Under the pieces are notes generated by a model. That model ran no database searches. It was not told where the DNA came from and saw only the letters and a list, made by a program, of their open reading frames with translations. This document shows, piece by piece, positions 119 to 35,869 of a stretch of DNA of 64,000 bases. Position 1 is the first letter of the stretch. Each line of letters starts with the position of its first letter. Made by a program: the position numbers and the translations under genes. Origin of the DNA: Patescibacteria group bacterium (GTDB lineage Bacteria; Patescibacteriota; Patescibacteriia; Magasanikbacterales; GWA2-37-8); contig SCQK01000014.1 of assembly GCA_004321885.1 (NCBI GenBank), positions 1-64,000 on the forward strand, in the 5' to 3' direction.

Positions 119-985
119 ATGGTACAAGCTTCAGATGTTGTTAAGCTCCGAGAACTTACGGGAGCAGGAATGATGGACTGCAAAAACGCGCTGGAAGAAA
201 CCGGCGGTGATATGGAAAAAGCCGCTGATTTATTGCGCAAAAAAGGCATTGTGAAAGCGGCTAAGCGGGCCGGCAAAGTGGCGGCCGAGGGACTGGTCCT
301 GGTGAAAACCGCCGGGAATTTCGGGGTCGTGATGGAACTGAATTGCGAGACTGATTTTGTGGCCAAAAACGACGGCTTCAAGCAAACCGCCGCAGAATTC
401 TTAGATTATCTTTTGGAAAAAAGGCCGGCTAATTTGGACCAGGCCCTGGGCCAGCCAATGGGTAGCGCCACTGTGCGCGAGAATCTGGAAAGCGCCACGG
501 CGAAAATCGGCGAGAAAATTTTCTTGCGCCGCTTCGCGGTATTGGAAAAAGGCGGCGGCGAGACTTTCGGTGAGTATATCCACATGGGCGGCAAAATCGC
601 AGTGTTGGTTTTGCTTTCCGGCGCCGATGCCGATTTGGCGCGCGAAATCGCCATGCAGGCGGCCGCGGCCAATCCGAGATATTTAGACAGAAGCGAAGTG
701 CCGGCCGCGGATTTGGAACGGGAAAAAGCCATCCACGCGGACCAGCTCAAAGCCCAGGGCAAACCCGAGAGCATGATAGAAAATATTTTGCGAGGCAAGC
801 TGGAAAAATTCTACGAGGAGAACTGCCTGATTGACCAAGTATATATAAAGGATGAAAGCAAAAAAGTGCGCGACCTGCTTGGTACGGCGACAATAAAAAA
901 ATTTATCCGTTTTGAACTGGGCGAGGGCATAGAAAAAGAACAGAAAAATTTTGCCGACGAAGTATCAGAACAGTTGGGCGGATAA
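119..985 (+). CDS. tsf: Translation elongation factor Ts
   Basis: Translation MVQASDVVKLRELTGAGMMDCKNALEETGGDMEKAADLLRKKG is the canonical EF-Ts N-terminal UBA-like region; the ORF track starts at 68 but the conserved N-terminus begins at the ATG at 119. Confidence 0.88.
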   Translation: MVQASDVVKLRELTGAGMMDCKNALEETGGDMEKAADLLRKKGIVKAAKRAGKVAAEGLVLVKTAGNFGVVMELNCETDFVAKNDGFKQTAAEFLDYLLEKRPANLDQALGQPMGSATVRENLESATAKIGEKIFLRRFAVLEKGGGETFGEYIHMGGKIAVLVLLSGADADLAREIAMQAAAANPRYLDRSEVPAADLEREKAIHADQLKAQGKPESMIENILRGKLEKFYEENCLIDQVYIKDESKKVRDLLGTATIKKFIRFELGEGIEKEQKNFADEVSEQLGG

Positions 986-1034
986 AAGTTATCCACAGGG
1001 TCATGCGATCCTGCGTGCCGGCCGCGAAAATTTG

Positions 1035-1178
1035 TGGTATAATAACATCAGCTTAATTCCACAACATTCAAGATGAGTGTGAAGCTTGTCTCACGCATCT
1101 ATAAATAGTTGGTTTGGAAATGCTTTTAGCGAAGCCAAAATTTTTTGTTAAAAATTTAATTTAAGGAGAAAAAAATAT
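1035..1178 (+). promoter_or_regulatory. Extended -10 promoter (TGgTATAAT at 1035..1043), ~130-nt leader and AAGGAG Shine-Dalgarno (1163..1168) for the giant surface-protein gene
   Basis: TGnTATAAT match; SD spaced 10 nt from the ATG at 1179. Confidence 0.5.
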
Positions 1179-4100
1179 ATGGCCAAGAAAATCGTGCGCC
1201 ATCTGGCGAGCAAAAAAAGAGCCTACCTGCTGTCGCTGGCGGCAGTGGTGTTGGGCATGGGTTTTTATTTAGCTTTTTTCTGGAGCAACGGGGCCAAGGC
1301 CCTCTCCGGCGTAACGCTTGCCGATACAGATACGAGTAGTTTTGGTTTGGATGGGCGCGACTTTACCGTAACCTGGGCCCCGGGCGCCACTCCGACGGCT
1401 TATATTTACACCCAGGTCTACATTGTTACCAGCACGGCTGTTCTTACCTCCAACACGCTTCAAACCGCCTGTAACGGCGTATGCCAGCCGGTTAGTTATT
1501 TTACCCAGTGGAGCATGAATACCGTCACCCTGCCGCAATACAGGAACACGGATAGCTCCAATGTGGCCTGGACAACCACCACCCAGTATGTGGCCTGGGT
1601 ATTTGCTTCCACCACTAACCCAGTCGATTCCCTAATGGTTTCTTCATCGCCGGTTTCCACCACTTATGACGTTGCCTCCGACGCCATGGCCCCGAACATA
1701 GATCACATGTCGGCGCACGCGGCCACGCAAAGCGCCAACGCCCTTCTTTATGCGTTTGCTTTTGACGAGCAGACCACGGCGTCCCAGTTCGCTTCCACCA
1801 CCGACGGCGGAGCTGAATTTTTTACCCTCTTTTACACGCCCACCAACACGGCCTGGGTCCCGGCCAATCAAGCGACCGCCACTTCGGTAGCCGGAGATTT
1901 ATTCTTGTTCACAGTGCCATCCGAGGCAGTGCCGGCGGCCGGGGGTTCGTTTAAGTATTATTTGTCGGCCAGAGACAGAGCCGGCAACACTAAATTTTTC
2001 TGCGCCAATCCCAGCGCCATATCCGCGGCTGATTGCCAATCCAATGCTTTTATTGTCAATACGGTAGCGGCTGGCTCGCGCCAGGTTTCCGGCAAGATTA
2101 CGTCCGGGGGCGCTAATTTGGCCGGCGCCACAGTGTTTGCCGGCGGTTATGCCAAGGCGGCTGTCGCATCCGACGCTAGCGGCGATTACACCATTACCGG
2201 TTTGCCTGATAATGATGGGTTTGATTTCACCGCGACCAAAGCCGGCTATTGCAAGAACATCCGTTTTGAAAATATCGGCGCTACCAATAAAACCGGCGTG
2301 GACATGTCGCTTAACTCCGGCACTTGCGGCGGATACTATGGCGGAGGCGGGAGCGGTGGCGGCACGCCCATGGTGGTGTTTTCGGGTCCGCCGGAAGGTA
2401 TGAATAACGTGTTTCTTGGTGAAACAATGCGCATGGGCGTAAATCAGCCCCTTGACCAGGCCACCATTAACAGCACAAATGTCTACCTCACGACCGATGA
2501 TGGCACGACTAAGATCCCCGGCAGTGTAACATTCTGTTCCAATAATGCTTCGCCCGGTTGTTCTTCTCTTTTCGCGATGGATAATAATGTCGTGTTGTTC
2601 GTGCCCACGTCGCCGCTATCTTCCAGCACCTTTTATACTTATGTCATCACCGAAGGCGTTAAAAGCGCGAGCGGCCAGTCTATTACCGGCAACCGCGCCG
2701 GCGGCGGCCACAAGGTCAGCTTTACCACCTCGGGCGGCAATTACAGCGGCGGCGGTTATACCATGGGCAGCAGCGGCCAGTTCATGCCCCCTTATGTGAA
2801 ATCAATGAGTCCGGCCGGCGGCATGAGCGTGGCCCCGAACGTTAAATTAATTCTGGAATTCAACAAGGCAATGAGCGCGAGTACGGTAAACACCTCCAAT
2901 GTTATTCTGTGGAACACGACTTTAAATTCGGCTGTTACTTTAAGCAGTGTTACCTTGGACAACGCGGAAAGCCGCTTTGCGGTTATCACGCCCAGCTCAA
3001 TGCCGGCCGGCAATGACTATGAACTGCGCGTCAAGGGCGGGGTGCAAGATGCGAGCGGCGTGGGCATGCGTTCGCCGGCCGAGGCCTCGCAAACAGCTTT
3101 CAGCTCGTTTTTTAGCGTGGCTGGTTCAAACGACAACACCGCGCCCACGACTTATCCAATGACTGCTTCTGGCACCACCGGCGTTGCCACCAATAATCTT
3201 TTTGAGTTTGGTTTTAATGAACGGCTGGATACCCAGACCGTCAATTCCACCAACATCACCATGAGCCGCGGGGGCACGTCAGTCAGCATTGACGCCAAAT
3301 ATGACGGCACCAAGAACAGTATTTTGATTGTTCCCAGCTCGGCCCTGGCGGCAAGCACGGTCTACACCATTACCTTATCCAGAATTAAGGATTTGGCCAA
3401 CAACCAAATTGCCACTTCCACCTATACCTATACTACCGGCGCGGCCGATATCGCGGCGCCGGCAGTACAGAATGTGAGATGCGATGATTATACCTGCCGC
3501 ATATCGTTCAGCGAGCCTATGAACCACGCGACCAAGGTTGATTCCACCTGGGCGAGCAGTACCTTGAATCATTTGAATTTGAGCCTGACCCAGGGTGGGG
3601 CCGACAAAATAGTCACCACCACGGCGCTATCCTACGATTCAGTGGCCAAAGAATTGGTTGCCGAGGGCGTGGCCCTTACTTTTGGCGGAGCCAACTTCGC
3701 ACTGACAATCACTGGTGTTACTGATATTACCGGCAACATTATGCCGGTCGTTGCTTGGACAGGAGCAGTGGAAGACAGTAGAAAGACGTTTGGTTTTGGT
3801 GAAATGGGCATGTTTGGCCCGCCCACTACTGATATGATGGGCGGCGGGTCCATTGGCGGCGGCGAGTTCAAGCCCATGGGCTTTGGCTCGTTTACAGCCG
3901 ACCAGTTTGCCATGGGTCAGGCTGATATGGCTTTCCCGTTCAACCCCACTGTCAGCCAGGACGTCAATGTCTTTCATGTGGAATTAAATCCCAACACGGC
4001 CCTGCAAAACAACGATCAGGTGGCATTAACATTCCCGGATGGAGTCAACATTACGAACGCCGCCATGGATACCCTGTCTCCGTTTTTCGCGGACATGAAC

Positions 4101-10987: not shown

Positions 10988-11983
10988 ATGAACATCGCAA
11001 TCAACGGTTTTGGCCGCATTGGGCGGCAGGCGTTTAAGGTGGCTGTAACAAAGAAAAACATAAAGGTGGTCGCGCTCAATGATTTAACCGACACCAAGAC
11101 CATGGCGCATTTGTTAAAATACGACACGTCTTACGGCTCGTTTGATTTGCCCCTTTCCTTTGATGAGAAAAATTTAATCGTGAAAGGCAAAAAGATTCCG
11201 GTGCTGGCGGAAAAAGACCCGAGCAAACTGCCCTGGGGTGAAATGAAAGTGGCCGTGGTTTTGGAGTGCACGGGCCGGTTTACCAAAAAAGAAGACGCGG
11301 CTTTGCATTTGCAAGCGGGCGCGAAAAAAGTGATTATTTCGGCGCCGGCCAAGGGCGGCGGAGTGCCGACTTATGTGCGCGGGGTAAATTGCGGCCAGGT
11401 GGGCAAAGAGAAAGAAGCGATTATCAACAACGCCTCATGCACCACCAATTGCATCGCGCCGGTGATGGCGGTGCTGGATGAAAAGTTCGGCATAGAAAAG
11501 GCGTTTATGAGCACGGCGCACGGCTACACGGCCGACCAGAATCTGCAAGACGGCCCGCACAAGGATTTGCGCCGGGCGCGCGCGGCCGCCTGCAACATCA
11601 TTCCTACTACCACGGGCGCGGCCAAGGCCGTGGGCGAGGTGATTCCCAAATTAAAGGGTATTTTTGACGGGGTGGCTTTCCGGGTGCCGGTGCCGACTGT
11701 TTCTTTGTCCGATATTACCGCTGTCTTGAAAAAGAACGCGACTAAAGAAGAGGTGAATAAAGCGATTTTGGCGGCCGCGGGTACTTCGCGCTTCAAGGGT
11801 ATTTTGGCCGCCACCAGCGAGCCGCTGGTGTCTGCGGATTTTATCGGCAACACGCATTCCTCGTTTGTGGATTTGAGCTTGACCAGCGTGGTGGGAGGGA
11901 ATATGGTGAAAGTGGTGGCTTGGTACGACAATGAAGTTGGCTACGCCAATCGCCTGGTGGAACTGGCCGAGTTATTCGCGTAA
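10988..11983 (+). CDS. gap: Glyceraldehyde-3-phosphate dehydrogenase
   Basis: NGFGRIGR N-terminal NAD-binding motif and the active-site ASCTTNCIAPV. Confidence 0.9.
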   Translation: MNIAINGFGRIGRQAFKVAVTKKNIKVVALNDLTDTKTMAHLLKYDTSYGSFDLPLSFDEKNLIVKGKKIPVLAEKDPSKLPWGEMKVAVVLECTGRFTKKEDAALHLQAGAKKVIISAPAKGGGVPTYVRGVNCGQVGKEKEAIINNASCTTNCIAPVMAVLDEKFGIEKAFMSTAHGYTADQNLQDGPHKDLRRARAAACNIIPTTTGAAKAVGEVIPKLKGIFDGVAFRVPVPTVSLSDITAVLKKNATKEEVNKAILAAAGTSRFKGILAATSEPLVSADFIGNTHSSFVDLSLTSVVGGNMVKVVAWYDNEVGYANRLVELAELFA

Positions 11984-11987
11984 AATT

Positions 11988-12021
11988 TCTCTCCCCCTTT
12001 TTAAGGAGGAGACGAAGAGGG
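11988..12021. repeat. C-run/G-run palindromic intergenic element (family A), copy after gap
   Basis: TCTCTCCCCC-tttttaa-GGAGGAGACGAAGAGGG; the G arm provides AGGAGG before the next ATG. Confidence 0.45.
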
Positions 12022-12027
12022 TAAACA

Positions 12028-12618
12028 ATGCTTATGCTAAAAATTAAGAATGATGAACTGATAAAAGAATTAGTCGGTTCCGAGGCGGAATTTCCCAAAT
12101 ACGCTACCCAACTGATCAATCTTGCCAATCAAAACGCCCAGGGTACGAGACCAAAAGTTGTTGGTCAATTGTCCGAGTTGATTAATGAGTGCCCTAAGAA
12201 GACGTATGAGGGTTGGCGCGACTGGTACCTCGCCAAACATCCGGACGCGATCAAAAATGCCGTGGTAAAGATAAATCAGATGATGGAGAATTTTAAGTTG
12301 GCCATCAAATCCATCAATAAAAAAATGATTGAAAAATGGGTTAGGGATTTAGTACTGGAAAAAACTTATGTGGGGTTGAGATTCCAGGAAGCCATATTAA
12401 AAAAAGTGGCGCAAATCAAAAAAATAAGCTATCAATTATCAACCGCCCAAGAAGAATCCTGCGGGATAGACGGATATGTCGGCGGTGAAGCCGTCTCTGT
12501 TAAGCCTATGTCGTACAAGACAAAGGCCGCTTTGGGAGAAACATTAGGAGGAAAAATAATTTTTTACGAAAAGAAAAAAGACGGCTTAAACATAGACGCG
12601 GATTTGATATTAAAATAA
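12028..12618 (+). CDS. Candidate type II restriction endonuclease, partner of the adjacent methyltransferase
   Basis: 196-aa ORF ending 4 nt before the MTase start and co-oriented with it; no recognisable housekeeping domain. Assignment is by operon context only. Confidence 0.4.
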   Translation: MLMLKIKNDELIKELVGSEAEFPKYATQLINLANQNAQGTRPKVVGQLSELINECPKKTYEGWRDWYLAKHPDAIKNAVVKINQMMENFKLAIKSINKKMIEKWVRDLVLEKTYVGLRFQEAILKKVAQIKKISYQLSTAQEESCGIDGYVGGEAVSVKPMSYKTKAALGETLGGKIIFYEKKKDGLNIDADLILK

Positions 12619-12622
12619 TAAC

Positions 12623-13576
12623 ATGGGCACGAATCATAGAATAATTATTGGCGATTCGCGGCAGATGTCGGAGCTTAGCGACAAATCTGTCCATCTTATT
12701 ATAACCTCACCGCCTTATTGGCAGATAAAGGATTATGGCAGTGCCGATCAGATAGGTTTTAACGATACCTACGAGGAATACATAAAAAATTTGAATCAGG
12801 TGTGGTCCGAATGCGCGCGCGTTTTGCATGATGGTTGCCGCATGGTGATAAATATCGGCGATCAATTTGCCAGGGCCGTTACATACGGGAGGTATAAAGT
12901 GATACCCATTCGCGAAGAGATAATCAAATTTTGCGAATCAATCGGCTTTGATTATATGGGCGCGATTATTTGGCAGAAAGTGACGACGATGCACACTACC
13001 GGCGGCGCCTCAATTATGGGTTCTTTTCCGTACCCGAGGAACGGCATGATAGCGATAGATTATGAGTTCATATTGCTTTTCAAAAAGCTGGGCAAGGCGC
13101 CCAATAATGTGACTGCGGATATAAAAAAGAAATCAGAGATGACGAAAGAAGAATGGAGAGAATACTTTACCGGACATTGGAATTTTGTTGGCGAGAAGCA
13201 AAACGGCGGGCATATCGCGATGTTTCCCGAAGAGCTACCCAAGCGCATTATAAAAATGTTTAGTTTTTTTGGGGAAACGGTGCTTGATCCGTTTTTGGGC
13301 AGTGGCACGACAACAAAGACAGCCCGGGAGTTAGGCCGCAATTCTGTTGGGTACGAAATCAATAATGATTTTTTGTCGGTTATTAAGGAAAAAGTCGGCA
13401 TTAATAAAATGTCGCTCTTCAATCGCGATACGAAGTATGACGTCGTAAATCAGCAGAAAAATTACGGGCTGAAACAAAAAGGTATTGAAAAAAAAGATTC
13501 CATAATTAAAAATAGAGTTAACGATCCGAATTTTTGGAAATTATTAAAAGAGAAAAGATGCAAGGTCGTCACTTAA
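12623..13576 (+). CDS. DNA methyltransferase, beta-class amino-MTase (N4-cytosine or N6-adenine; SPPY catalytic motif)
   Basis: Motif IV LIITSPPYW near the N-terminus and motif I FLGSGTT near the C-terminus (circular permutation typical of the N6_N4_Mtase family). Confidence 0.85.
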   Translation: MGTNHRIIIGDSRQMSELSDKSVHLIITSPPYWQIKDYGSADQIGFNDTYEEYIKNLNQVWSECARVLHDGCRMVINIGDQFARAVTYGRYKVIPIREEIIKFCESIGFDYMGAIIWQKVTTMHTTGGASIMGSFPYPRNGMIAIDYEFILLFKKLGKAPNNVTADIKKKSEMTKEEWREYFTGHWNFVGEKQNGGHIAMFPEELPKRIIKMFSFFGETVLDPFLGSGTTTKTARELGRNSVGYEINNDFLSVIKEKVGINKMSLFNRDTKYDVVNQQKNYGLKQKGIEKKDSIIKNRVNDPNFWKLLKEKRCKVVT

Positions 13577-21741: not shown

Positions 21742-22920
21742 ATGCGCACTGTTAGGGACATCAAAAATTGGCGTGGGAAAAGAGCGCTCTTGCGGGCGGA
21801 TTTTAACGTACCCGTGGAAAAAGGGAAAGTAAAAGACGATTTCAAGATTCGCAAGAGCCTGCCCACTATAAAATATCTGCTTGCGCAGGGCGCCAAAGTT
21901 GTTTTGGTTTCCCATCTCGGCCGGCCAGGTGGCGTGGATAGAAAATTTACGCTTGAACCGGTGCGAAAAAGCCTGGAAGCCTTGCTTCAAGAAAAAGTCG
22001 GCTTGATAAAAATGAAAAAGCCGGAAAATTATTTTCGCGAGGCGGCCGCTGAAATTGATAAATTAAAAAACGGCAGGGCGCTTTTGCTGGAAAACATTCG
22101 CTTTTCCAAAAGTGAAGAAGAAAACAAAAATGATTTCAGCCGCAAGCTTTCCGAGTTGGCCGATATTTTTGTTTTAGACGGTTTCGCCGTGGCGCATCGG
22201 GACGCCTCTTCGGTATCGGGAGTGGCGCGCTATTTACCGGCCTACGCCGGCCTGCTTTTGGAAGAAGAAACGCGCGGATTGAGCCGGGTGGTGGAGGGCG
22301 CTGTTAAACCTTTTGTGCTGGTACTAGGCGGTGCAAAAATGGAAACCAAAATTCCGGTGCTAAAAAATTTAATGAGCCAGGCCGACCATATTCTTATCGG
22401 CGGGGGCATTGCCAACACCTATTTTTGGGCCAGGGGCTATGGCGTAGGCGCGTCTTTAGTTGATAAAAAATTCAAAGAAGAAATTTTGCGTTTGGGCGCC
22501 AGGGAAAAAGTGGTTATGCCAATAGACGCTGTGATTGGTTTAGAAAACGGCAAAAACGCGCAAGTTGTCAAAATGGCTCAGGGTGTTAAAATAAAAAATA
22601 GCGAAGGCATTTTTGATATCGGGCCAGCCACCATTCGCCTGTACGCGCGCTTTATAAAAAGCGCCAATACATTGGTCTGGAACGGGGCTATGGGCTATTT
22701 TGAAAAGCATCCGTATCAATACGGCACCGATGCCATCGCGCGACTGGTGGCGTCTCGCAGCAAAGGCAAAGCGTTTGGGGTGGCTGGCGGCGGTGAAACA
22801 GTGGAAGTGATAAGAAAGCTGGATTTGGCGCGCGACATTGACTTGGTTTCCACCGGCGGCGGAGCCATGCTGGAATTTCTGGCCGGCAAACAGTTGCCGG
22901 GCTTGAAAGCATTGAAATAA
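21742..22920 (+). CDS. pgk: Phosphoglycerate kinase
   Basis: RADFNVP...VLVSHLGRP N-terminal signature; GGGAGGTGG Shine-Dalgarno upstream. Confidence 0.9.
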   Translation: MRTVRDIKNWRGKRALLRADFNVPVEKGKVKDDFKIRKSLPTIKYLLAQGAKVVLVSHLGRPGGVDRKFTLEPVRKSLEALLQEKVGLIKMKKPENYFREAAAEIDKLKNGRALLLENIRFSKSEEENKNDFSRKLSELADIFVLDGFAVAHRDASSVSGVARYLPAYAGLLLEEETRGLSRVVEGAVKPFVLVLGGAKMETKIPVLKNLMSQADHILIGGGIANTYFWARGYGVGASLVDKKFKEEILRLGAREKVVMPIDAVIGLENGKNAQVVKMAQGVKIKNSEGIFDIGPATIRLYARFIKSANTLVWNGAMGYFEKHPYQYGTDAIARLVASRSKGKAFGVAGGGETVEVIRKLDLARDIDLVSTGGGAMLEFLAGKQLPGLKALK

Positions 22921-22926
22921 TATTTT

Positions 22927-23667
22927 ATGTTAGACAGTCTGATTCTAAATAAAAAGTCCATAGAGAGTATTTATAAAACTGTCAAAGATTTTCACGAAAA
23001 ATATTTGAAGAAGTTTGGCGTAAAATTGCCAAAACTATACAATTCCGGCGGAAAATTTTCTAAAGACGCGCTCGTTCTGGTTTATTTGACGTATGATTAT
23101 CCAAAAACAAGAAAAGTTTCAAAAGAAGAACTGACAAAATTCATAAGAAGCCACTATCCGGACACAAATGACGTACAGCAGGCCAGACATTTGGGGGCGC
23201 AAGCTGGCTGGTGGATAGTGGCCGGCGGGCGAGATAATATCGTTTTGGATATAAAGCGAGGATATTATCAACTTTATACCCTGGAGCAGCCTTACCCGGG
23301 ATTTAAGAAAGGCCATAGAATTTTAGAAACCGATAATTGGGCCGAAATAAAAGAAAAATACAATTTCCGTTGCGCCACTTGCGGTTCGCAGGAAGGGAAA
23401 CCCCATTTTCATTGGCCGGCGACAAAAACAATTTTGCAAAAAGCGCATATGGACCCAAACAAGCCGTTTGTTGCCGGAAATATAATCCCGCAATGTCAAA
23501 AGTGTAATATGGGCGATAGAAACAGGTGGGTTTATGATGATAAAGGAAGGGTTATAAAATTAGCAGATGCAAATTTTGTTAAAAATTTTGATAAGGATGT
23601 AAGGCAAAAAATTTACAAGATTTTATACAACGAATTTAACGGAAAAAAACCTAATTCCAAAAGATAA
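22927..23667 (+). CDS. Candidate HNH-family type II restriction endonuclease
   Basis: C-terminal CATCGS...HFHW...QKAHMDPNK...NIIPQCQKCN is a CxxC/H/N/CxxC HNH (beta-beta-alpha-Me) pattern; it sits immediately upstream of and co-oriented with a DNA MTase. Confidence 0.5.
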   Translation: MLDSLILNKKSIESIYKTVKDFHEKYLKKFGVKLPKLYNSGGKFSKDALVLVYLTYDYPKTRKVSKEELTKFIRSHYPDTNDVQQARHLGAQAGWWIVAGGRDNIVLDIKRGYYQLYTLEQPYPGFKKGHRILETDNWAEIKEKYNFRCATCGSQEGKPHFHWPATKTILQKAHMDPNKPFVAGNIIPQCQKCNMGDRNRWVYDDKGRVIKLADANFVKNFDKDVRQKIYKILYNEFNGKKPNSKR

Positions 23668-23670
23668 TTT

Positions 23671-24669
23671 ATGAAAAATAATAAGTTCATAAATAAAATT
23701 ATTTGTGCGGATACGTTAGAATTACTTCCCCAAATTGAGGATAATTCTATTGACGTTGTTTTGACCGACCCGCCGTATTTTTTGGACAAGCTGGATAATA
23801 ACTGGGATTACGAAAAAGTCTCCAATCAAAACAATCAATATGCTATAAAATCTTTGCCTGCCGGCATGAAATTTGACAGAGAGCAGGGGAAAAGATTTTA
23901 TGCTTGGTATTTAGATATTTCAAAAGAAATTTTTAGGATTTTAAAACCGGGTGGATTTTTCTTTTCATTTTCCAGTCCTCGGCTTTACCACCGAATGGCT
24001 TCGGCAATAGATGACGCAGGTTTTGAAATAAGAGACGCGTTTATGTGGCTTTATACTCAAAATCAAGCCAAAGCGATGGGCGTTGATCATTTTATTAAAA
24101 AAATGAATATAGACGAAAAGGCCAAAGAAAAAATCAAGGAAAAACTGAATGGCTGGAAAACCCCGCAAATAAAATCCTGTTTTGAACCAATCGCAATGGC
24201 GCAAAAACCCGCCGACCAGACATATTTAAGTAATATGTTGAAGCACGAAGTGGGTTTGTTTAACACAAACGTGCGGATTGGCGATAATATGTATCCGGCA
24301 AATGTTTTTACGATAGAAAGCATCAACGAACTAGTAGATAAAGCGTTTTTATTGCCAAAACCGACAAAGAAAGAAAAGGGAGAATACAACGACCACAAAA
24401 CCGTGAAGCCGTTGGCTATTTGCGAATATTTAATTAAACTTTCCGCTTTTGCAAAAAACGCGGTTGTCCTTGATCCGTTTGTCGGCAGCGGGACAACCGC
24501 GGTGGCGGCAAAAAAATTGGGTAAGAATTATATTGGCATTGACGCGAACGAGAAATACGTGGAACTTTCCGAGCGCCGGCTGAAAGATTTGGATGAAAAA
24601 CAGGATTTATTCCAGATTGTTGAGAGAGAGAAAATAAAAAATTTACAAATGGAATTACAAGTTTTATAA
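23671..24669 (+). CDS. DNA methyltransferase, beta-class amino-MTase (DPPY)
   Basis: Motif IV VVLTDPPYF near the N-terminus and motif I FVGSGTT near the C-terminus. Confidence 0.85.
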   Translation: MKNNKFINKIICADTLELLPQIEDNSIDVVLTDPPYFLDKLDNNWDYEKVSNQNNQYAIKSLPAGMKFDREQGKRFYAWYLDISKEIFRILKPGGFFFSFSSPRLYHRMASAIDDAGFEIRDAFMWLYTQNQAKAMGVDHFIKKMNIDEKAKEKIKEKLNGWKTPQIKSCFEPIAMAQKPADQTYLSNMLKHEVGLFNTNVRIGDNMYPANVFTIESINELVDKAFLLPKPTKKEKGEYNDHKTVKPLAICEYLIKLSAFAKNAVVLDPFVGSGTTAVAAKKLGKNYIGIDANEKYVELSERRLKDLDEKQDLFQIVEREKIKNLQMELQVL

Positions 24670-28387: not shown

Positions 28388-29965
28388 ATGTCTCGTCCAG
28401 TAGTATTGGCGATTTTAGACGGCTGGGGCGTGGCTCCGGCCAGCGAAGGCAACGCGGTAACGCGGGCGAACGCGCCCAATTTTTTGAAATACTTGAAGGA
28501 TTACCCCACCATGACCATTTACGCCGCCGGCAACGAGGTCGGTTTGCTTTTCGGCGAGATGGGCAATTCGGAAGTGGGGCATTTGAACATCGGCGCCGGC
28601 CGCGTTTATTATCAAACTTGCCCCCGCATCAACAAAGAAATAGCCGAGGGCGGTTTTTTTGAAAACCGCGCCTTTATGGCGGCCATAGAAAAAGTAAAAC
28701 AAACCAACGGGCGCCTGCACCTTATCGGCCTGGTTTCTTCGGGCAATGTTCATTCCAGCAACGAGCATTTGTACGCGCTTTTGGAATTGTGCCGTAGGCA
28801 AAAATTGGAGCAGACCCGGGTCGCGATTCACGTAATTTTGGACGGCCGCGATTGCACGTATAATTCTGGCAAGGATTTTGTGGCCGAGCTTAATAAAAAA
28901 ATGAAAGAGCTTAAAGTCGGTGTCATTGCCTCGGTCTGCGGCCGTTTTTTCGCCATGGACAGGGACAACCGCTGGGACAGGGTGGAAAAGGCCTACAAAG
29001 CGATGGCGAGCGGCGAGGCCGAAAGATATTCCGAAGACCCGCTGGAAGCGATAAAAATTTCTTATGAGCAAAAGAATTTTGACGAAGAATTCACGCCGAC
29101 CGTCATCGTGAAAAACGGCGAGCCGGCGGCGCCGGCGCGCGGCGGCGACGCGGCGATTTTTTTCAACTTTCGCGCCGACCGCGCGCGCCAACTCACGCAG
29201 GCTTTTGTGGTGCCGTCGTTTAACAAATTTCCCAAAAAACCCCTCAATGATTTTTTGTTTGTGACCATGAGCGAGTATGAAAAAGAAACGCCGGTGCTGG
29301 TGGCCTATGCCCCGCAGATAGTGCCGAATTGCCTGGCTGAGGTTATAAGTCGTGCCGGACTAAAACAATTTCATATAGCTGAAACCGAAAAGTACGCGCA
29401 CGTTACTTTTTTTCTGAACGGCACGGTGGAACAGCCCTTTCCGGGCGAAGAGCGTTTGCTGGTGCCGTCGCCGCATGTTTCCAGCTATGCCGAGGTGCCG
29501 CAGATGTCGGCCGTGGAAGTAGCCAAAGAAACAATAAAAGCCATTGCGAGCAAAAAGTATGATTTTATCGTGGTGAATCTGGCGAACCCTGATATGGTGG
29601 GGCACACTGGGGTGTTGGATGCCGGCATCAGGGCTTGCGAGGTGAGCGACAAGTGCTTGGGGGAAATCGCGGACCAGGCGCTGGCGCAAGACGGGATGCT
29701 TTTAATAACGGCGGACCACGGCAATGTGGAGGAGATGCTCAACTTGCAGACTGGGGAGATAGACAAAGAACATTCCACCAATCCGGTGCCGTTTATAGTG
29801 GTGGCCAAAGAATTTTTGGGCCAGGCCGGCTCATCCGGCGACGCGCCTGAGGGCGATTTGAGTCTAATGCATCCGGTGGGGGTCTTGGCCGATGTGGCGC
29901 CAACGATTTTGAAATTGATGGGGTTGCCCCAGCCGCCCGAGATGACTGGCCAGCCGTTAATCTAG
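28388..29965 (+). CDS. gpmI: 2,3-bisphosphoglycerate-independent phosphoglycerate mutase, copy 2 (divergent tandem paralog)
   Basis: VLAILDGWGVAP...NSEVGHLNIGAGRV and ITADHGN...EHSTNPVP; the same iPGM motifs as the preceding gene with clearly different sequence. Confidence 0.85.
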   Translation: MSRPVVLAILDGWGVAPASEGNAVTRANAPNFLKYLKDYPTMTIYAAGNEVGLLFGEMGNSEVGHLNIGAGRVYYQTCPRINKEIAEGGFFENRAFMAAIEKVKQTNGRLHLIGLVSSGNVHSSNEHLYALLELCRRQKLEQTRVAIHVILDGRDCTYNSGKDFVAELNKKMKELKVGVIASVCGRFFAMDRDNRWDRVEKAYKAMASGEAERYSEDPLEAIKISYEQKNFDEEFTPTVIVKNGEPAAPARGGDAAIFFNFRADRARQLTQAFVVPSFNKFPKKPLNDFLFVTMSEYEKETPVLVAYAPQIVPNCLAEVISRAGLKQFHIAETEKYAHVTFFLNGTVEQPFPGEERLLVPSPHVSSYAEVPQMSAVEVAKETIKAIASKKYDFIVVNLANPDMVGHTGVLDAGIRACEVSDKCLGEIADQALAQDGMLLITADHGNVEEMLNLQTGEIDKEHSTNPVPFIVVAKEFLGQAGSSGDAPEGDLSLMHPVGVLADVAPTILKLMGLPQPPEMTGQPLI

Positions 29966-29967
29966 AA

Positions 29968-29995
29968 TCCCTCCCAAGGGGAGAGAGGGTGGGGT
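29968..29995. repeat. Family A C/G palindromic element in the convergent gap between gpmI-2 and the DHH gene (probable bidirectional terminator)
   Basis: TCCCTCCC-aa-GGGGAGAGGGTGGGGTTTATT. Confidence 0.5.
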
Positions 29996-31141
29996 TTATT
30001 CAGCGGCTATTTGCCTTCTAATCGTTTCCATCACCTCTCTTTCCACCTCTTTCAACGTCTTGTTTTTGATAAAAAAGGAGGCGGTTTTATTGTTGCCGTC
30101 GGGCTTAAACGGCGCCAGGAGCTGTTTGGCGTTATACTGTTTGTCGGCGGTTAACGTCACTTTGTATTTGCCCACGCTTTCAGGCTCTTCGTAAATTATC
30201 AGAATCAGCCGCGCTTCGGGCGAGTTGGCGATGAGGTCCTCGGTTAGGCCGGTCAGCTCGTCGGGTGTGGCGCCCGAGCGGATAAATTCTTCGCGCGTGA
30301 CGTTGGTCCAGACCAACCCCAGGCGGCTGTCATTTTCCAGGTGCGACAAAGCTTGCCCCCACAGTTTGAGAGAGGAAAGCGGCTTGGCCAGATACAAAAA
30401 GCGGATAATTTTTTCCCGGTCCGCGCCCATATCTATCAGCTTGCTGGCCAAGCTTAAAGTATAGGGGGTAACGTTGGATGATTTGAAGCTTTGCGTGTGG
30501 GAAATCATTCCGGTAAGAAGGGCCGTGGCGATGTTCTCGTCTATGTAGGCTTCGCCCAATTTTTCCAAGGATTTATAGATGACTTCGCAGGTGGAAGTGG
30601 CGGTGATTTCCACGAAGTTCAGCTGGCCGAAGTGTTCGTTGGACGGGTGGTGGTCAAAGTTGACAATGGGCGCGGCGTAGAATAGGTCGGTGTTGCTAAA
30701 AAAAATCGAACCCAAAGATTCCAAGTCCTGGGCGCTGACCGCTATAATGGCGTCATATTTGAAAGCTGATTGCGCGGTACGCAGTTCGTTTTTGGTGATG
30801 ACGCCAGTTTTTGGCGTGAGGTAAATGGAAAGCCATTCGTCTTTTACGTCGTAGCTTATGGTGTCTATCTTGGCCTTGGAAACATCCACTTTGATGATAA
30901 ATTTTTGTAGGTTGGTGATTTCGTCCTTGATTTGTTCTATGCCGTGCAAAAAGCGCAAATTTTTGGGCGCGCTAAAATCCGAGGCCACTATGTCGGCCTG
31001 CTTGTTTTGTTTTTGCAGAAAATATTTCCAGGCCAGGGCGCCGCAAACAGCGTCGGTATTGTTTTTAGCGTTAAAAACAATCAGGAAGTGTTTGCTGTTG
31101 TTTATCAGCTGGTGTAGTTGTTGGATTTCATCAAAAGCCAT
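29996..31141 (-). CDS. DHH-family phosphoesterase (NrnA-like nanoRNase / pAp phosphatase)
   Basis: NFDHHPSN DHH motif with typical flanking architecture; it is convergent with gpmI copy 2. Confidence 0.65.
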   Translation of the reverse strand: MAFDEIQQLHQLINNSKHFLIVFNAKNNTDAVCGALAWKYFLQKQNKQADIVASDFSAPKNLRFLHGIEQIKDEITNLQKFIIKVDVSKAKIDTISYDVKDEWLSIYLTPKTGVITKNELRTAQSAFKYDAIIAVSAQDLESLGSIFFSNTDLFYAAPIVNFDHHPSNEHFGQLNFVEITATSTCEVIYKSLEKLGEAYIDENIATALLTGMISHTQSFKSSNVTPYTLSLASKLIDMGADREKIIRFLYLAKPLSSLKLWGQALSHLENDSRLGLVWTNVTREEFIRSGATPDELTGLTEDLIANSPEARLILIIYEEPESVGKYKVTLTADKQYNAKQLLAPFKPDGNNKTASFFIKNKTLKEVEREVMETIRRQIAAE

Positions 31142-31240
31142 GTATTTTTTAGCTAACTTAACACAAACTTCCCGCGCAAAGGCGAGAGAATATAGAAGTT
31201 TATCATAATAGAGCCAAAAGTCAACCTTGACACGATGTCG

Positions 31241-31342
31241 CTGGCTCCATGCTGTGCGTGGAGCCAGAGTGCATTACGGCTCCATAGTCCCCGACTTAGT
31301 CGGGGCTGTGGAGCCAGCGAAGAATGGCGCCCTGGGCGCCAT
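31241..31342. repeat. Cluster of three GC-rich hairpins with reused stem sequence (CTGGCTCCA/TGGAGCCAG twice; nested CCCCGAC/GTCGGGG; ATGGCGCC/GGCGCCAT)
   Basis: Perfect inverted repeats read from the sequence in the 330-nt gap between the minus-strand DHH gene start and the truncated MTase. Confidence 0.5.
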
Positions 31343-31471
31343 AAGCCGCTGCGAACACATCCAGTCCGCGCGAGCGCCGTTCAAATTTCTTCAGCCCGGC
31401 AATCACTAAGCATTTGCTTTTTTCCCTTTTTTTTAGTAAAATAAAGCCTACGAAATACAGTAATTCAACCT

Positions 31472-31861
31472 ATGGGAAAGGAAAATATTAAACCAAAAGC
31501 AGACAGGAATCGCACAATAACGTTAAATGATTTAGATGTCTGCTATCTTAAGAAGCGGTTAATAAAGCTGGATAAGCCCGTGTCTTTTTCGGAAATAGAA
31601 AATAAGACTATCCATCAAGATATATTTGAAGCCCTTGATTATCTGCCTGAAAAATTTGTCGATTTGGTTTTTGTTGATCCGCCATACAATCTCAATAAGA
31701 CTTTTAATTTTACCTCGTTTAAGGCGATGGATTCGGAAAAATACGAAGAATGGCTTGATTCTTGGTTAAAAAAAATTGTTCGTTTATTAAAACCGCACGC
31801 GTCGGTTTATATCTGTGGCGACTGGAAATCTTCGGGGGCGATTTTTAATGTGGCGAATTAA
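31472..31861 (+). pseudogene. Truncated N-terminal fragment of a beta-class DNA amino-methyltransferase
   Basis: Contains motif IV FVDPPYNL and the following helix, then stops after 129 aa; no FxGSGTT motif I occurs downstream in any frame. Confidence 0.6.
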
Positions 31862-31865
31862 AATT

Positions 31866-32537
31866 ATGAATAGTACAAACAAAAAATTGAGTTATACTGA
31901 TGCCGCGTACGAAATTCTCAAACAGACCAATGAAGCATTATCGTCAGTAGAATTAGTGGATATTGCCTTAACGAAAGGCACACTCGAAACAAAAGGGAAG
32001 ACGCCTGAAGCGACAATGGGTGCGTCTCTATATTTGGAGTGCCAAAGAAGAAACAATGAATCACGATTTGTTAAGGTGGGGAGAGATAAATGGGCTTTGT
32101 CGGAATGGGGTAAAAAAGCTATCCAAGTTGAAATTGAAAAATACGATAAGGCGACTCAAGAAATTCAATTAAAAATTCGTAAAACAATTGTTGGCGATCC
32201 GTTAAATTTTGACGGGCTACAATACGCGCCCATAAATGAACAAGGTGTGGTTTTTCTTTTTGGGAAGTTGCATAAGGAGTTGGGGATAATAGTTGAGGCG
32301 ATACAAACAGGATTCCCAGATGCAAAGGGACGTAAGAAAATACGAGCCGGTTGGCAAGAGATAGCAATTGAGTTTGAGTATCGCAGTTCTAATTTTTTGT
32401 CTCATAAGCACGAGATTCAACACTGTGATTTGATTGTATGTTGGATGCACGATTGGAAAGAGTGCCCGTTAGAAGTAGTTGAGTTGAAGTCAATTATTGA
32501 AAAGAAATTAAAAAATGGAGATGAACAAAATTTTTGA
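31866..32537 (+). CDS. HARE-HTH domain protein; likely the N-terminal part of a frameshifted restriction endonuclease
   Basis: N-terminus LSYTDAAYEILKQTNEALSSVELV...GKTPEATMGASLY...RFVKVGRDKWALSEW matches the HARE-HTH fold; its C-terminus overlaps the next ORF in another frame at an A6 run. Confidence 0.5.
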   Translation: MNSTNKKLSYTDAAYEILKQTNEALSSVELVDIALTKGTLETKGKTPEATMGASLYLECQRRNNESRFVKVGRDKWALSEWGKKAIQVEIEKYDKATQEIQLKIRKTIVGDPLNFDGLQYAPINEQGVVFLFGKLHKELGIIVEAIQTGFPDAKGRKKIRAGWQEIAIEFEYRSSNFLSHKHEIQHCDLIVCWMHDWKECPLEVVELKSIIEKKLKNGDEQNF

Positions 32538-33156
32538 AGAAAAATATAGGAAAAGAATTGAAGGAAATATCAAAAGGTTGCTTAATATTAATTTTAGTAT
32601 TCTCAAAATTGAACGACCATGGGCTGTTGGAGATTTTTTTGGAAATGACTTTGAAAAAATTTTTGGCAATTTAGGATTAAATTATTCGTTGTCTTTCGCC
32701 CGTCGCGCCATGGCCGATTTGGCGTTTACGGATAAAAACGGATTTTATTATGTCGTTGACGTAAAAACGCACCGGCTTGACACAAAATTCAATATGCCCA
32801 ATCTGACTTCGGTAGAACGGCTGGCGCGATTTTACGAGGAAGATGCCAATTATTTTTCTATCCTTAAGGTTGATTACCTTGCCAATGGAACGCGGGCTGA
32901 AATTAAAAAAGTCACTTTCGCGCCGATTGAATTTTTTGATTGGAGTTGTCTGACTATCGGCACGTTGGGATGGGGCCAAATTCAAATCGCGAACGCGAAT
33001 GTCGTAAAAATAGCACACAAAAACAGTCGGAAAAAATGGATGCTGGATTTATGCGATACGATGTTGGATTTTTATCCAAAGGAGATAGGAAAAATACATG
33101 AGAGGGTAGAACATTTCAAGAAAGTGAGGAAATTTTGGGAGAAGAAGACGAGTTAA
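32515..33156 (+). CDS. PD-(D/E)xK-type restriction-endonuclease-like protein (possible C-terminal part of a split gene)
   Basis: FTDKNGFYYVVDVKTH fits a PD...(D/E)xK core; the ORF overlaps the HARE-HTH ORF by 23 nt in a different frame. Confidence 0.45.
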   Translation: MEMNKIFEEKYRKRIEGNIKRLLNINFSILKIERPWAVGDFFGNDFEKIFGNLGLNYSLSFARRAMADLAFTDKNGFYYVVDVKTHRLDTKFNMPNLTSVERLARFYEEDANYFSILKVDYLANGTRAEIKKVTFAPIEFFDWSCLTIGTLGWGQIQIANANVVKIAHKNSRKKWMLDLCDTMLDFYPKEIGKIHERVEHFKKVRKFWEKKTS

Positions 33157-33172
33157 AAACGGAAATGCCAGT

Positions 33173-35869
33173 ATGAAAGAACTTCCAAAGGCCTACGAGC
33201 CGCGAAAATACGAGGATAAGATATATGAACGTTGGGAAAAGAGCGGGTTGTTCAACCCCGATGTTTGTGTGGAAAAAGGCGTTGCCGATAAGAAGGCGAA
33301 GCCGTTTTCCATTGTCCTGCCTCCGCCCAACGTGACCGGCACCTTGCATTTGGGCCAGGCCTTGATGCTGTCGGTGCAGGATTTGCTGGTTCGTTATCAC
33401 CGCATGAAGAGCGACAAGACCTTGTGGGTGCCGGGCACTGACCACGCGGCAATTGCCACGCAGACCAAAGTGGAGAAATTGCTGATTCAGCAGGGGGTGA
33501 AAGACCCGCGCGCTGAATTGGGCCGGGAAAAATTTTTGAAAGAAGTAAACAAATTCGCGCAGGAATCGCACGATATCATCGTGAACCAGTGCCGCAAAAT
33601 GGGCGCGTCCTTGGATTGGACGCGTGAGGCCTTTACTTTGGACGAGCAAAGAAATCTGGCCGTGCGCACGATGTTCAAGATGATGTACGACGACGGCCTT
33701 ATTTACCGCGGCCATCGCATTGTAAACTGGTGCCCGCGTTGTCATTCCACTCTGGCCGACGACGAGGTGGAGTACAAAGCCCAGGCCGGCAAACTTTACA
33801 CTTTTAGATACGCCGATGATTTTCCTTTTGCCATTTCCACCACCAGGCCCGAAACCAAGCTGGGCGATACGGCCGTGGCCGTAAACCCGAACGACGAGCG
33901 CTATAAAAAATATATCGGCAAAGTTTTTGAAGTAAAAAAATTCGCGGGCGGACCGGATTTGAAAATAAAAGTGATTGCCAGCGAAGACGTGGACACAGAC
34001 TTTGGCACGGGCGCGCTTGGCGTTACTCCGGCGCACAGCTTTGCTGACTATGAAATGGCGCAAAAAAATAAATTGCTGGTGATTAAAGTGATTGATGAAG
34101 ACGGGAAAATTACCAAAGAGGCCGGCAAGCATTATAAGGGGTTCACGGTTTTGGAAGCGCGGGCGCGGGTGCTGGAAAACCTGCGCGAATTGAATTTGCT
34201 GGAAAAAGAGGAAGATGTTTCCAATAATTTATCTGTTTGCTATCGCTGTGAAAGTCCGGTGGAGCCTATTCCCTCCAAGCAGTGGTTCATAGACGTGAAC
34301 AAGAAATTCAGAATCAAGAATGAAGAATTAAGAATAAAGGGATTGAAAGTGAACAGCGAAGTGACGTTGAAACAATTGATGTCGGTCGCGGTGAAAAATG
34401 GACAGATAGAAATTATTCCGGACCGCTTCAACAAAACTTATTTTCATTGGATAGACAATTTGCGCGACTGGTGTATCAGCCGGCAAATTTGGTACGGCCA
34501 CCAGATTCCGGTGTGGTACAAAGGCGAGGAAATTTTCGTGGACGTAGAGGCGCCAAAGGGCGATGGCTGGGCTCAAGACCCAGATACGCTGGATACCTGG
34601 TTCAGCTCTGGCCTGTGGACTTTTTCCACACTTGGCTGGCCCGACAAGACCGATGACTTGAAAAATTTTCATCCCACCTCGGTGATGGAAACCGGTTATG
34701 ATATTTTATTTTTTTGGGTGGCGCGCATGATTTTGATGACGACTTACGCGTTGGGCGATATTCCTTTTGAAAAGGTTTATCTGCACGGTTTGGTGCGCGA
34801 CGAGCAGGGGCGCAAAATGAGCAAATCGTTGGGTAACGCGATTGACCCGCTGGACATGATAAGAGAGTATGGAGCCGACGCCGTCCGCCTGTCGTTGCTT
34901 ATTGGCACCAGCCCGGGCAATGATATGAAGCTGTCGGTGGAAAAAATCGCTGGTTTTCGCAATTTCACCAACAAGCTGTGGAATATCTGCCGGTTTATGC
35001 TGATGAACATCGGCAAGGATGTCATTCTGACCCCGACTCAGTCGGGGGAAGAATCCCTTTCAAAAACCCTGGCCGACAAGTGGATTTTGAATCGGTTGCG
35101 CGCAGTAATTAATATTGTCACAGAAAATATTGAAAAGTTTAATTTTTCTTACGCCGGAGAGCGTCTGCGCGATTTCACCTGGGGCGATTTGGCGGATTGG
35201 TATTTGGAGGTCGCAAAAATAGAAGGTGATAAGTCGGAAATCTTAAATTACATTTTAAGCGTGATTTTGAGACTTTGGCACCCGTTCATGCCCTTTGTCA
35301 CCGAACAAATTTGGCAGGATATTTATGGGAAAGAAAAAATGTTGATGGTGGAAAAATGGCCGGAAAAAATTAAATCGTTAGTTGATTCTTCACTCATCGG
35401 GATGACTGATTTTGATTATGCGAGAAATATAATTTTTCAACTTCGCTCATTGCGAGCTGAATATAAAATTGAACCGACAAAAAAAATAAATGTCGCAATC
35501 AGCGCGGGCGCTAAAGAACAAATTTTGAAGGATAACAAGGAGATGATCGTTAAAATGGCTAAAATTGATAATTTGATAATTGGAAAAGAGGTAAAAAAAC
35601 CGATAAACGCAGTTACATTTTTTGAACCGCCATGTGTTACTGTTTTTATGGACCTGGCTGGTTCGGTGGATTTGGTCAAGGAAAAAGAACGGCTGAAAAA
35701 AGAAATTGAGCAAACGGAAAAATATGTGGAAATACAAAAGAAAAAATTAGCCAACAAAGAATTCGTGGCAAACGCCCCCGCAGAAATCGTGGAAAAAGAA
35801 CAGCAGAAACTTTCTGAATGTGAAGCGAAGCTGGGGAAATTAAAAAATCAATTGAAGAGTCTAAAATGA
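33173..35869 (+). CDS. valS: Valyl-tRNA synthetase
   Basis: PPPNVTGTLHLGQAL (HIGH region), KMSKSLGN, and a C-terminal coiled-coil. Confidence 0.9.
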   Translation: MKELPKAYEPRKYEDKIYERWEKSGLFNPDVCVEKGVADKKAKPFSIVLPPPNVTGTLHLGQALMLSVQDLLVRYHRMKSDKTLWVPGTDHAAIATQTKVEKLLIQQGVKDPRAELGREKFLKEVNKFAQESHDIIVNQCRKMGASLDWTREAFTLDEQRNLAVRTMFKMMYDDGLIYRGHRIVNWCPRCHSTLADDEVEYKAQAGKLYTFRYADDFPFAISTTRPETKLGDTAVAVNPNDERYKKYIGKVFEVKKFAGGPDLKIKVIASEDVDTDFGTGALGVTPAHSFADYEMAQKNKLLVIKVIDEDGKITKEAGKHYKGFTVLEARARVLENLRELNLLEKEEDVSNNLSVCYRCESPVEPIPSKQWFIDVNKKFRIKNEELRIKGLKVNSEVTLKQLMSVAVKNGQIEIIPDRFNKTYFHWIDNLRDWCISRQIWYGHQIPVWYKGEEIFVDVEAPKGDGWAQDPDTLDTWFSSGLWTFSTLGWPDKTDDLKNFHPTSVMETGYDILFFWVARMILMTTYALGDIPFEKVYLHGLVRDEQGRKMSKSLGNAIDPLDMIREYGADAVRLSLLIGTSPGNDMKLSVEKIAGFRNFTNKLWNICRFMLMNIGKDVILTPTQSGEESLSKTLADKWILNRLRAVINIVTENIEKFNFSYAGERLRDFTWGDLADWYLEVAKIEGDKSEILNYILSVILRLWHPFMPFVTEQIWQDIYGKEKMLMVEKWPEKIKSLVDSSLIGMTDFDYARNIIFQLRSLRAEYKIEPTKKINVAISAGAKEQILKDNKEMIVKMAKIDNLIIGKEVKKPINAVTFFEPPCVTVFMDLAGSVDLVKEKERLKKEIEQTEKYVEIQKKKLANKEFVANAPAEIVEKEQQKLSECEAKLGKLKNQLKSLK

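Follow-up and report, generated by a model that had tools for sequence, protein, structure and literature searches.

The stretch of DNA analysed here, referred to as the window, covers 64,000 nucleotides of a Patescibacteria group bacterium (positions 1 to 64,000, forward strand, of contig SCQK01000014.1 in assembly GCA_004321885.1). This report concerns a set of three genes at positions 31472 to 33156 of the window, designated M', H and R, which encode in this order the stub of a DNA methyltransferase (MTase), a HARE-HTH protein and a restriction-endonuclease-like protein. The open reading frames (ORFs) of all three are intact in the window copy, and the genes and their parts are as follows.

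31472..31861, plus strand: M', MTase stub of 129 aa, recognised with the Pfam N6_N4_Mtase profile
31847..31865, plus strand: M'/H junction, where the homology to the full-length MTase gene ends
31866..32537, plus strand: H, HARE-HTH protein of 223 aa, the best start being the ATG at 31866
31890..32108, plus strand: HARE-HTH domain of H (residues 9-81; PF05066)
32223..32513, plus strand: nuclease-like C-domain of H (residues ~120-216; family region ~105-223, 32178-32534)
32510..32515, plus strand: run of six A (A6) in the tail of H (..K-K-L-K-N..)
32515..33156, plus strand: R, restriction-endonuclease-like protein of 213 aa from the ATG at 32515
32716..32766, plus strand: predicted catalytic core of R, D68 ... 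D82-V-K84, then NMPNLTS

Gene products and the H/R junction

The M' product corresponds to residues 1-128 of a 337-aa beta-class N6-adenine/N4-cytosine (N6A/N4C) MTase, with 75-77% identity to this part of the full-length enzymes (77% for that of L009; loci on other contigs are designated herein by L numbers), and it covers positions 1-57 only of the 221 positions of the Pfam profile. Motif IV is kept as DPPY at residue 69, in agreement with the initial annotation, made from the letters of the window alone, in which an MTase truncated at 129 aa with DPPY and without motif I downstream had been noticed. The missing part of about 210 residues includes motifs VII-VIII, the target recognition domain and the S-adenosylmethionine (AdoMet)-binding motifs X and I-III, with the sequence DPFLGSGT. 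By tblastn search the C-terminal part of the MTase was absent from the window and from the other loci of this type, L001-6 included, and the remaining matches in the window were confined to two complete MTases at 12623 and 23671. With its AdoMet-binding half gone, M' should clearly be unable to methylate DNA. Full-length MTases read on as KKYFQIRNRITFEREKGRG past AIFNVA / ..GDWKSSGAIFNVA, where the short forms end within a few codons. The homology to the full-length MTase gene stops after GCGATTTTTAAT (GTGGCG) and is followed by a short AT-rich spacer carrying the M' stop codon TAA (31859-31861) and then by the start of H. This breakpoint is identical in the window, L001, L004/65, L016, L063 and L064, all aligned to the canonical loci L007, L009, L010 and L012, and the stub keeps both its DPPY and a length of 126-135 aa across the copies. 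Two possible roles for such a stub were considered and rejected: completion of a split MTase by H or R, because the C-domain of H is an antiparallel meander and not a Rossmann half and R is without FxGxG, and read-through fusion of M' with H, because frame and spacing vary among the loci.

The H protein begins with a HARE-HTH winged helix, continues with a disordered linker and ends in a PD-(D/E)xK-like domain. The HARE-HTH domain, which the initial annotation had already recognised in the middle ORF, matches PF05066 over the full length of the model (E 3.6e-15; 56.5 bits against a gathering cut-off of 25.9) and has the winged-helix fold of the N-terminal domain of the RNA polymerase delta subunit. 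In the AlphaFold2 (AF2) model of H, the predicted local distance difference test (pLDDT) value is 83 overall, and for the C-domain of about 95 aa it is mostly 80-95 over residues 121-210 and above 90 from about residue 150. This domain is predicted to be alpha-beta-beta-beta-alpha-beta (alpha 125-135, beta 141-146, 153-159 and 162-173, alpha 176-179, beta 189-194), as in the core topology of PD-(D/E)xK enzymes, and the residues E125, P151-D152, E169-F-E171, H180, H182, C187, C192 and C200 are invariant in the alignment. No PADLOC or PHROG model matched H, no Pfam model matched its C-domain, and the only match in NCBIfam was a sub-threshold one to RNA polymerase delta in the HARE-HTH region.

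The family of the H C-domain includes 2330 representative clusters at 50% identity, and has no Pfam model. In 100 members sampled, the domain was accompanied by HNH_repeat (homing-endonuclease-associated repeats) in 47, by HARE-HTH and ParB in 4 each, by Mrr_N and DUF5655 in 2 each, and by EVE in a single case. Such a set of partners is the pattern of a putative effector nuclease placed on interchangeable readers of DNA or of modified bases. Within the family (proteins P0320-P0468), the domain is usually C-terminal in proteins of 200-350 aa with swappable N-terminal DNA-binding modules, and some members have it at the N-terminus, followed by another ~130 aa. HARE-HTH-nuclease fusions in N6A restriction-modification (R-M) contexts were reportedly described by Aravind and Iyer (2012). 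Comparative work by Iyer et al. (2016, PMC4738411) has also placed HARE-HTH nuclease fusions in N6A R-M contexts, and what the HARE-HTH domain reads is in dispute (PMC11037411). Since the C-domain is fused to readers and HARE-HTH nucleases occur in such contexts, we favour the view that H may be a modification-sensing (type IV-like) or homing-type nuclease, the presence of which would be tied to the loss of the MTase.

R has fold matches to R.SwaI (9.8), HincII (7.8), NlaIV (7.0) and EcoRV (6.1), all of them blunt cutters, and because of these matches it can very probably be placed among the type IIP endonucleases, on the EcoRV-like branch. The catalytic residues D68 ... D82-V-K84 and the following NMPNLTS are invariant in 27 homologues and align with ADILL..DVKT..APNIIS of HincII (profile E 0.067), that is, an EcoRV/HincII/SwaI-like fold is combined with a HincII-like placement of D..D-x-K. 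The third ORF had been noted from the outset as PD-(D/E)xK-like, and the D..DVK aligned with the HincII catalytic core bears this out. Against the Pfam family Endonuc-HincII the score of R (E 0.0048, 16.7 bits) stays below the cut-off of 23.7, which leaves R outside the family as defined there, and no PADLOC, PHROG or NCBIfam model matched it. At NCBI the start of R is set at the ATG at 32521, giving a protein of 211 aa (P0121).

H and R are joined by a stop/start overlap of 17-23 nt, in which the last A of the A6 run is the A of the first R ATG. The initial annotation had taken the two ORFs as halves of a single HARE-HTH nuclease of ~430 aa, split at this run and either in the course of pseudogenisation or switched on and off by slippage of the homopolymer. 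The run does exist where the frames collide, though one base to the right of the position given at that time, and deletion of one A from 32510..32515 does yield a single ORF of 429 aa; HARE-HTH domains are, in addition, known in fusion with nucleases. The two ORFs are nevertheless not one split gene. Among the best 120 of 193 matches the relatives of H are 148-335 aa long, those at 64-91% identity being mostly 212-233 aa with ~95% query coverage, and among the best 120 of 4453 matches the relatives of R are 198-231 aa with full coverage; no fused protein of ~430 aa was found in either set. Homologues encoded by two separate genes had been named beforehand as the observation that would speak against a frameshift, and this is the arrangement observed. 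In L001 the two genes are 7 nt apart, and other loci overlap as in the window with the A-run replaced by AAAAGCC, AAAGGCC, AAATAATG or AAACAATG.

Five loci have the run, each with exactly six A, and in the remaining loci it is interrupted; the relative frames of H and R are constant everywhere, and a tract length that varies between copies and toggles the frame, as in a phase-variable switch, was not seen in the loci compared. H already has a nuclease-like C-terminal domain of its own, and R is the stand-alone partner of a full-length MTase in canonical operons. Furthermore, in L070 AAAAAATG in the tail of H provides the start of another gene downstream, which encodes an MTase C-terminal fragment, and because AAAAAATG serves as the downstream start codon in both arrangements, the A-run is explained without slippage. 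H and R are, on these alignments, two complete and separate genes, with the A6 run as a part of their stop/start overlap, and a single nuclease split at the run is so improbable that we give it hardly any weight.

Canonical operons and M'-H-R cassettes in other genomes

A gene for the full 337-aa beta-class MTase, followed directly by R, was found in L009 (Elusimicrobia), L010/11, L012/13 (Taylorbacteria-like) and the viral loci L077 and L079, with an M/R overlap of 4 nt in L009-L013. As judged from these loci, the ancestor is a classical M-R operon for the 337-aa MTase and a SwaI/HincII-like endonuclease of ~220 aa, predicted to cut blunt. In the window and on at least 10 unrelated contigs, H stands in place of MTase codons ~127-337 with the same breakpoint, giving the recurrent order M' (126-135 aa), H (~216 aa) and R (211-216 aa), hereafter the cassette. 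It lies between a DHH-family gene and valS in the window, after pgk in L001, after asnB in L004/65, and between ileS and recO in L068, and the same order is present in L016 and L064. H-R pairs without M' were found in L015 (between murB and ddl) and L074 (after a peptidase M23-like gene), and in L014 the pair is preceded by a 32-aa remnant of M'. Every H homologue of more than 70% identity for which the locus was readable stands beside M or R remains; this does not hold for the relatives near 50% identity, which have two HARE-HTH copies and some of which adjoin other N6A MTases.

Most hosts of the cassette are Patescibacteria, and further contigs with it carry the labels Elusimicrobia and Gammaproteobacteria. 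Scanning of metagenomes with H gave 5 loci only, tblastn of H and R against plasmids and phages gave no match, and IMG/VR contained no M'-H-R cassette, its matches being limited to M-R loci, either canonical or decayed in some other way, and to two proteins distantly related to the H C-domain. In a phage-borne canonical operon of IMG/VR (L078, 2838-4534), GC-rich DNA with an antisense proline-rich ORF of 309 aa stands in place of the N-terminal half of the MTase gene, and R is frameshifted, representing decay by a different route. In the literature searched, no description of the M'-H-R cassette was found.

A second arrangement was recognised in L070 (3238-4913) and L071, in which a distant R homologue of 237 aa (R2; E 7e-4 to R), carrying SVK instead of DVK, is followed by H (80% identical) and then by a 90-aa MTase fragment that corresponds to residues ~207-290 and includes DPFMGSGT (motif I). 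To judge from this order, the N-terminal two-thirds of a related MTase gave way to H in an operon of R-M order, in an independent replacement. In both arrangements the MTase part nearest the restriction gene is lost and H abuts the restriction gene. The cassette-type R also differs from canonical R at its N-terminus, where all aligned copies share a 4-aa deletion and most have a second one of 3 aa, and where the conserved SPRAVGDAIE motif is missing; R of the window has both deletions.

By sliding-window comparison, L016 and L068 are ~90% identical over a block that begins in the last codons of M', spans H and extends into the first part of R, and ~75% identical in the flanks; for L016 and L064 the flanks are close (83-91%) and H is divergent (63-80%). 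The window and L063 are 91% identical in H and 74% in M'. The alignments show the cassettes as recombination mosaics, in which the H middle and the M'/R flanks occur in different combinations. The synonymous rate dS is saturated among the copies (0.8 to >2), and the pairwise ratio of nonsynonymous to synonymous rates (dN/dS) lies at 0.06-0.13 in M', ~0.06 in H and 0.06-0.2 in R, similar to those of canonical M and R. The mosaic structure makes these low ratios difficult to read for all three genes.

Decay was observed in several copies. In L065 both H and R contain nonsense codons, which do not reflect an alternative genetic code because TAA falls at Gln/Arg and Glu codons; the near-identical L004 has a frameshift in H; M' and R are partial in L017; L072/73 retains H with a 60-aa remnant of R; and L014 has the 32-aa remnant of M' referred to above. 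In L063, the cassette with the H most similar to that of the window, an IS1595-like transposase of 256 aa (516-1286, minus strand) sits exactly between M' and H and disrupts the H start. Between L004 and L065, H and R have ~4-5 times the substitution density of the housekeeping flank. These lesions, along with an MTase that is certainly inactive, could be taken to mean that the cassette is nothing but a non-functional R-M remnant, hit once by an insertion, passively carried and slowly decaying in all lineages. However, the three ORFs are intact in the window, L001, L016, L064 and L068 despite the saturated dS, dN/dS stays at 0.06-0.2 for each gene, conservation extends to the catalytic residues of R and to the invariant residues of H, and H-R pairs persist without M' in L015 and L074, so that passive carriage is in our estimation a poor bet. 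Of the decaying locus seen in the initial annotation, what remains is the nonsense and frameshift mutations of other copies; in the window itself the ORFs are intact, and truncation at the same codon is found in many genomes.

The stub itself could be read as part of a working three-protein system, in which M' has taken a new role as a regulator, an adaptor of H and R, or one half of a split enzyme completed in trans. Its constant length, its retained DPPY and a dN/dS equal to that of the N-terminal part of live MTases agree with such a role, as does M' of L004 and L065, which is unchanged (0/396 nt) while H and R gather lesions; with 0.5-2 changes expected, however, this absence of change is not significant. 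The fragment moreover breaks off inside the Rossmann-like fold, so that an MTase fold formed by it alone is unlikely, and the H-R pairs without M' (L015, L074), with the 32-aa remnant (L014) or with the partial stub (L017) also speak against such a role. Because the cassettes are mosaic, the low dN/dS of M' is readable in two ways: it may reflect a retained function, or a stub repeatedly re-derived from live MTase genes by recombination. A three-protein system is to our mind improbable.

Candidate specificity of R and surroundings of the cassette

The sequence TTTAAA is the DraI site and also forms the centre of the SwaI site. No other 6-bp palindrome is as strongly depleted in the three independent sets of sequence with R, where its counts are 15 observed against 41 expected in the window, 48 against 93 in the flanks of ten cassette loci, and 7 against 16 in the canonical hosts. 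It is not depleted in the control loci (307 kb; 200 observed, 231 expected) or in the hosts of orphan MTases (5 observed, 5.9 expected). This depletion suggests TTTAAA as the candidate specificity of R, which would be DraI-like. Full-length M copies without R occur in L007 (4935-6091) and L008 (5001-5989), both with frameshifts or stops, and L008 is from a contig labelled 4x, of low coverage, so that sequence errors are possible there; the two are candidates for orphan MTases of the same specificity. Three 4-bp palindromes are very strongly avoided in the 64-kb window, with observed/expected ratios of 0.09 for TCGA, 0.25 for GATC and 0.15 for CTAG, and the avoidance of CTAG fits the MjaI-like system at 12028.

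For the tolerance of R in the cassette three explanations may be offered: another MTase copy elsewhere in the genome may protect its sites (possibly TTTAAA), the cassette-specific N-terminus may alter the activity of R, or R may be inactive despite its conservation. Protection by the two other MTases of the window was considered and found unsupported, their partners being MjaI-like and HNH-like enzymes and only generic motifs being shared with M.

The GC content of the island at 31400-33160 is 0.33-0.42 as compared with ~0.5 in the flanks, and because it is low relative to the flanks, the foreign origin of the M'-H-R island is confirmed. The neighbours of the cassette in the window are the minus-strand DHH-family gene and valS, and the distance from the M' stop codon to the R start is 654 nt. 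Rfam scanning of 30900-33400 gave zero matches, and scanning for promoter and terminator consensus sequences gave no more matches than in shuffled sequence. At the left edge of the low-GC island, a GC-rich intergenic cluster (31225-31420) contains three near-perfect hairpins, with the arms GGCTCCA...TGGAGCC in two and ATGGCGCC...GGCGCCAT in one. Its folding z is -6.1 on the plus strand and -5.2 on the minus strand, it has no Rfam match, and TGGAGCCAG is present there in three copies and nowhere else in the window. For this cluster a small RNA, an array of bidirectional terminators or a site of recombination may be considered. Glycolysis genes are located upstream of all three R-M-type loci of the window (10988-13576, 21742-24669 and 28388-33156): gap precedes an MjaI-like endonuclease and an SPPY MTase, pgk precedes an HNH-like protein of 246 aa and a DPPY MTase, and gpmI with the DHH gene precedes the M'-H-R cassette. 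In L001 (2814-5651), too, the cassette comes directly after pgk.

Origin of the cassette and relation to known systems

On balance, and with considerable room for error, we think that the three separate and complete genes represent a recurrent M'-H-R cassette, derived from a type II operon by replacement of MTase codons ~127-337 with the H gene. In the proposed course of events, the H gene would enter an M-R operon and replace these codons, leaving R intact; the arrival of H, as a DNA-reader plus nuclease of type IV-like or homing kind, would be tied to the destruction of the MTase; R would be tolerated through protection by another MTase or through the altered cassette-type N-terminus; and the cassettes would then recombine, with copies decaying as nonsense mutations, frameshifts or IS insertions arise or as M' or R is lost. 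The feature singled out in the initial annotation as most worthy of attention, an intact nuclease beside a dead MTase, stands as described there, with all three ORFs confirmed.

Several observations weigh against this interpretation. The activities of the locus proteins are predictions. In the C-domain of H the sequence E-F-E is found where the lysine of (D/E)xK would sit, and no PDB match was obtained for this domain at E 1e-3 or better; because Glu replaces the canonical Lys and because of the lack of a PDB match, the nuclease activity of H is not assured. The TTTAAA depletion could be a trait of the lineage, the R hosts being mostly Patescibacteria and the controls mostly not. In the window 15 TTTAAA sites are left, and if R is active there, a protecting MTase elsewhere would be required; the two other MTases of the window are only distantly related to M. 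A dN/dS of ~0.1 together with conserved length is unexpected of a dead remnant, unless M' is re-derived by recombination. Finally, in the neighbour-joining tree of the conserved part of R the cassette copies did not form one clade, with bootstrap values of 0-21% for cassette versus canonical copies, and because the tree left this division undecided, no claim of monophyly is made.

The replacement of MTase codons by H resembles in several respects a free-standing homing endonuclease gene, and H might be one that cuts the intact MTase gene, is copied in by recombinational repair, spreads in this way among the M-R operons of a population and then degenerates. A homing cycle proceeds through invasion, fixation, decay and loss. 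The cassette has a fixed insertion point, identical across lineages in a conserved host gene, element-free alleles exist, mosaic tracts resembling co-conversion have H at their centre, the same H disrupts a second MTase gene (L070/71), many copies are degenerate, and about half of the sampled relatives of the C-domain have homing-endonuclease-associated repeats. Homing genes preserve the function of the host gene, however, and here the MTase is truncated: its target is destroyed, with ~630 bp deleted, unlike the case of intron- or intein-borne homing genes, and loss of the MTase in a live R-M operon should kill unless R is tamed simultaneously. H is as diverged as the flanks, with saturated dS and no sign of recent sweeps, and on the present evidence its domain belongs to no established homing family. 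Homing in this strict form we consider unlikely, even if less so than passive carriage or a three-protein system.

With the canonical type IIP R-M operon the cassette shares the order M then R, the R core D..DVK, the fold of R.SwaI/HincII, an M' 75-77% identical to the N-terminus of live partner MTases, a low-GC island and depletion of the candidate site TTTAAA. A restriction endonuclease gene is adjacent, as expected of a type II system, but neither an FxGxG motif nor the C-terminal part of the MTase is found near the locus, and an intact cognate MTase is not present at it. In contrast to the canonical operon, the cassette MTase is without residues ~129-337 and has another gene in their place, its R has N-terminal deletions, and no cognate methylation activity is encoded at the locus.

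In the pneumococcus S. pneumoniae, a cassette with the methyl-dependent nuclease DpnI and one with the MTase and endonuclease of DpnII are mutually exclusive at a single locus. The replacement leading to M'-H-R differs from this in being partial, the endonuclease gene of the displaced system staying beside the incoming nuclease. As in the HARE-HTH-nuclease fusions (PMC4738411), H joins an N-terminal HARE-HTH to a restriction-endonuclease-fold domain inside an N6A-type R-M locus; unlike them, the H gene is within the remains of an MTase gene and not beside an intact one, and its nuclease-like domain, for which Pfam has no model, carries E-x-E for (D/E)xK. With type IV enzymes (Mrr, DpnI-type winged-helix fusions, EVE/SRA fusions; PMC11037411), H shares the architecture of a reader plus nuclease with no cognate MTase at the locus, and its C-domain is fused to Mrr_N and EVE in relatives; unlike them, it has the conventional endonuclease gene R directly downstream. 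Conflict between methyl-specific nucleases and MTases is an established idea (PMC2993543), and an incompatibility of this kind between H and the MTase would explain why the latter is dead. The M'-H-R cassette is a recurrent variant on type II R-M, HARE-HTH nuclease, homing or type IV elements.

For annotation these results mean that ORFs of ~128 aa of this kind, labelled as DNA methylase, are stubs, and that H and R have to be kept as two genes. The R family is very large, with 4453 matches and no usable Pfam or PADLOC model, and is probably specific for TTTAAA; the cassette further offers handles on what prokaryotic HARE-HTH domains read and on a nuclease-like family of 2330 clusters without a Pfam model. 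An intact restriction gene beside a dead MTase should be lethal, yet this combination recurs with the same breakpoint across many uncultured bacteria. If H targets or excludes the MTase, the cassette would present, inside a single operon, a testable conflict of a modification-sensing nuclease versus R-M. We put forward, tentatively and as a long shot, that H may be a mobile nuclease gene, an 'anti-methyltransferase' element, that specifically invades and destroys the MTase genes of one family of type II operons in either gene order and that in M-R operons brings along the modified N-terminus of R. If so, an R-M addiction module would be converted into a methylation-free module of two nucleases, H and a retuned R, which would represent a new route of defence-island evolution.

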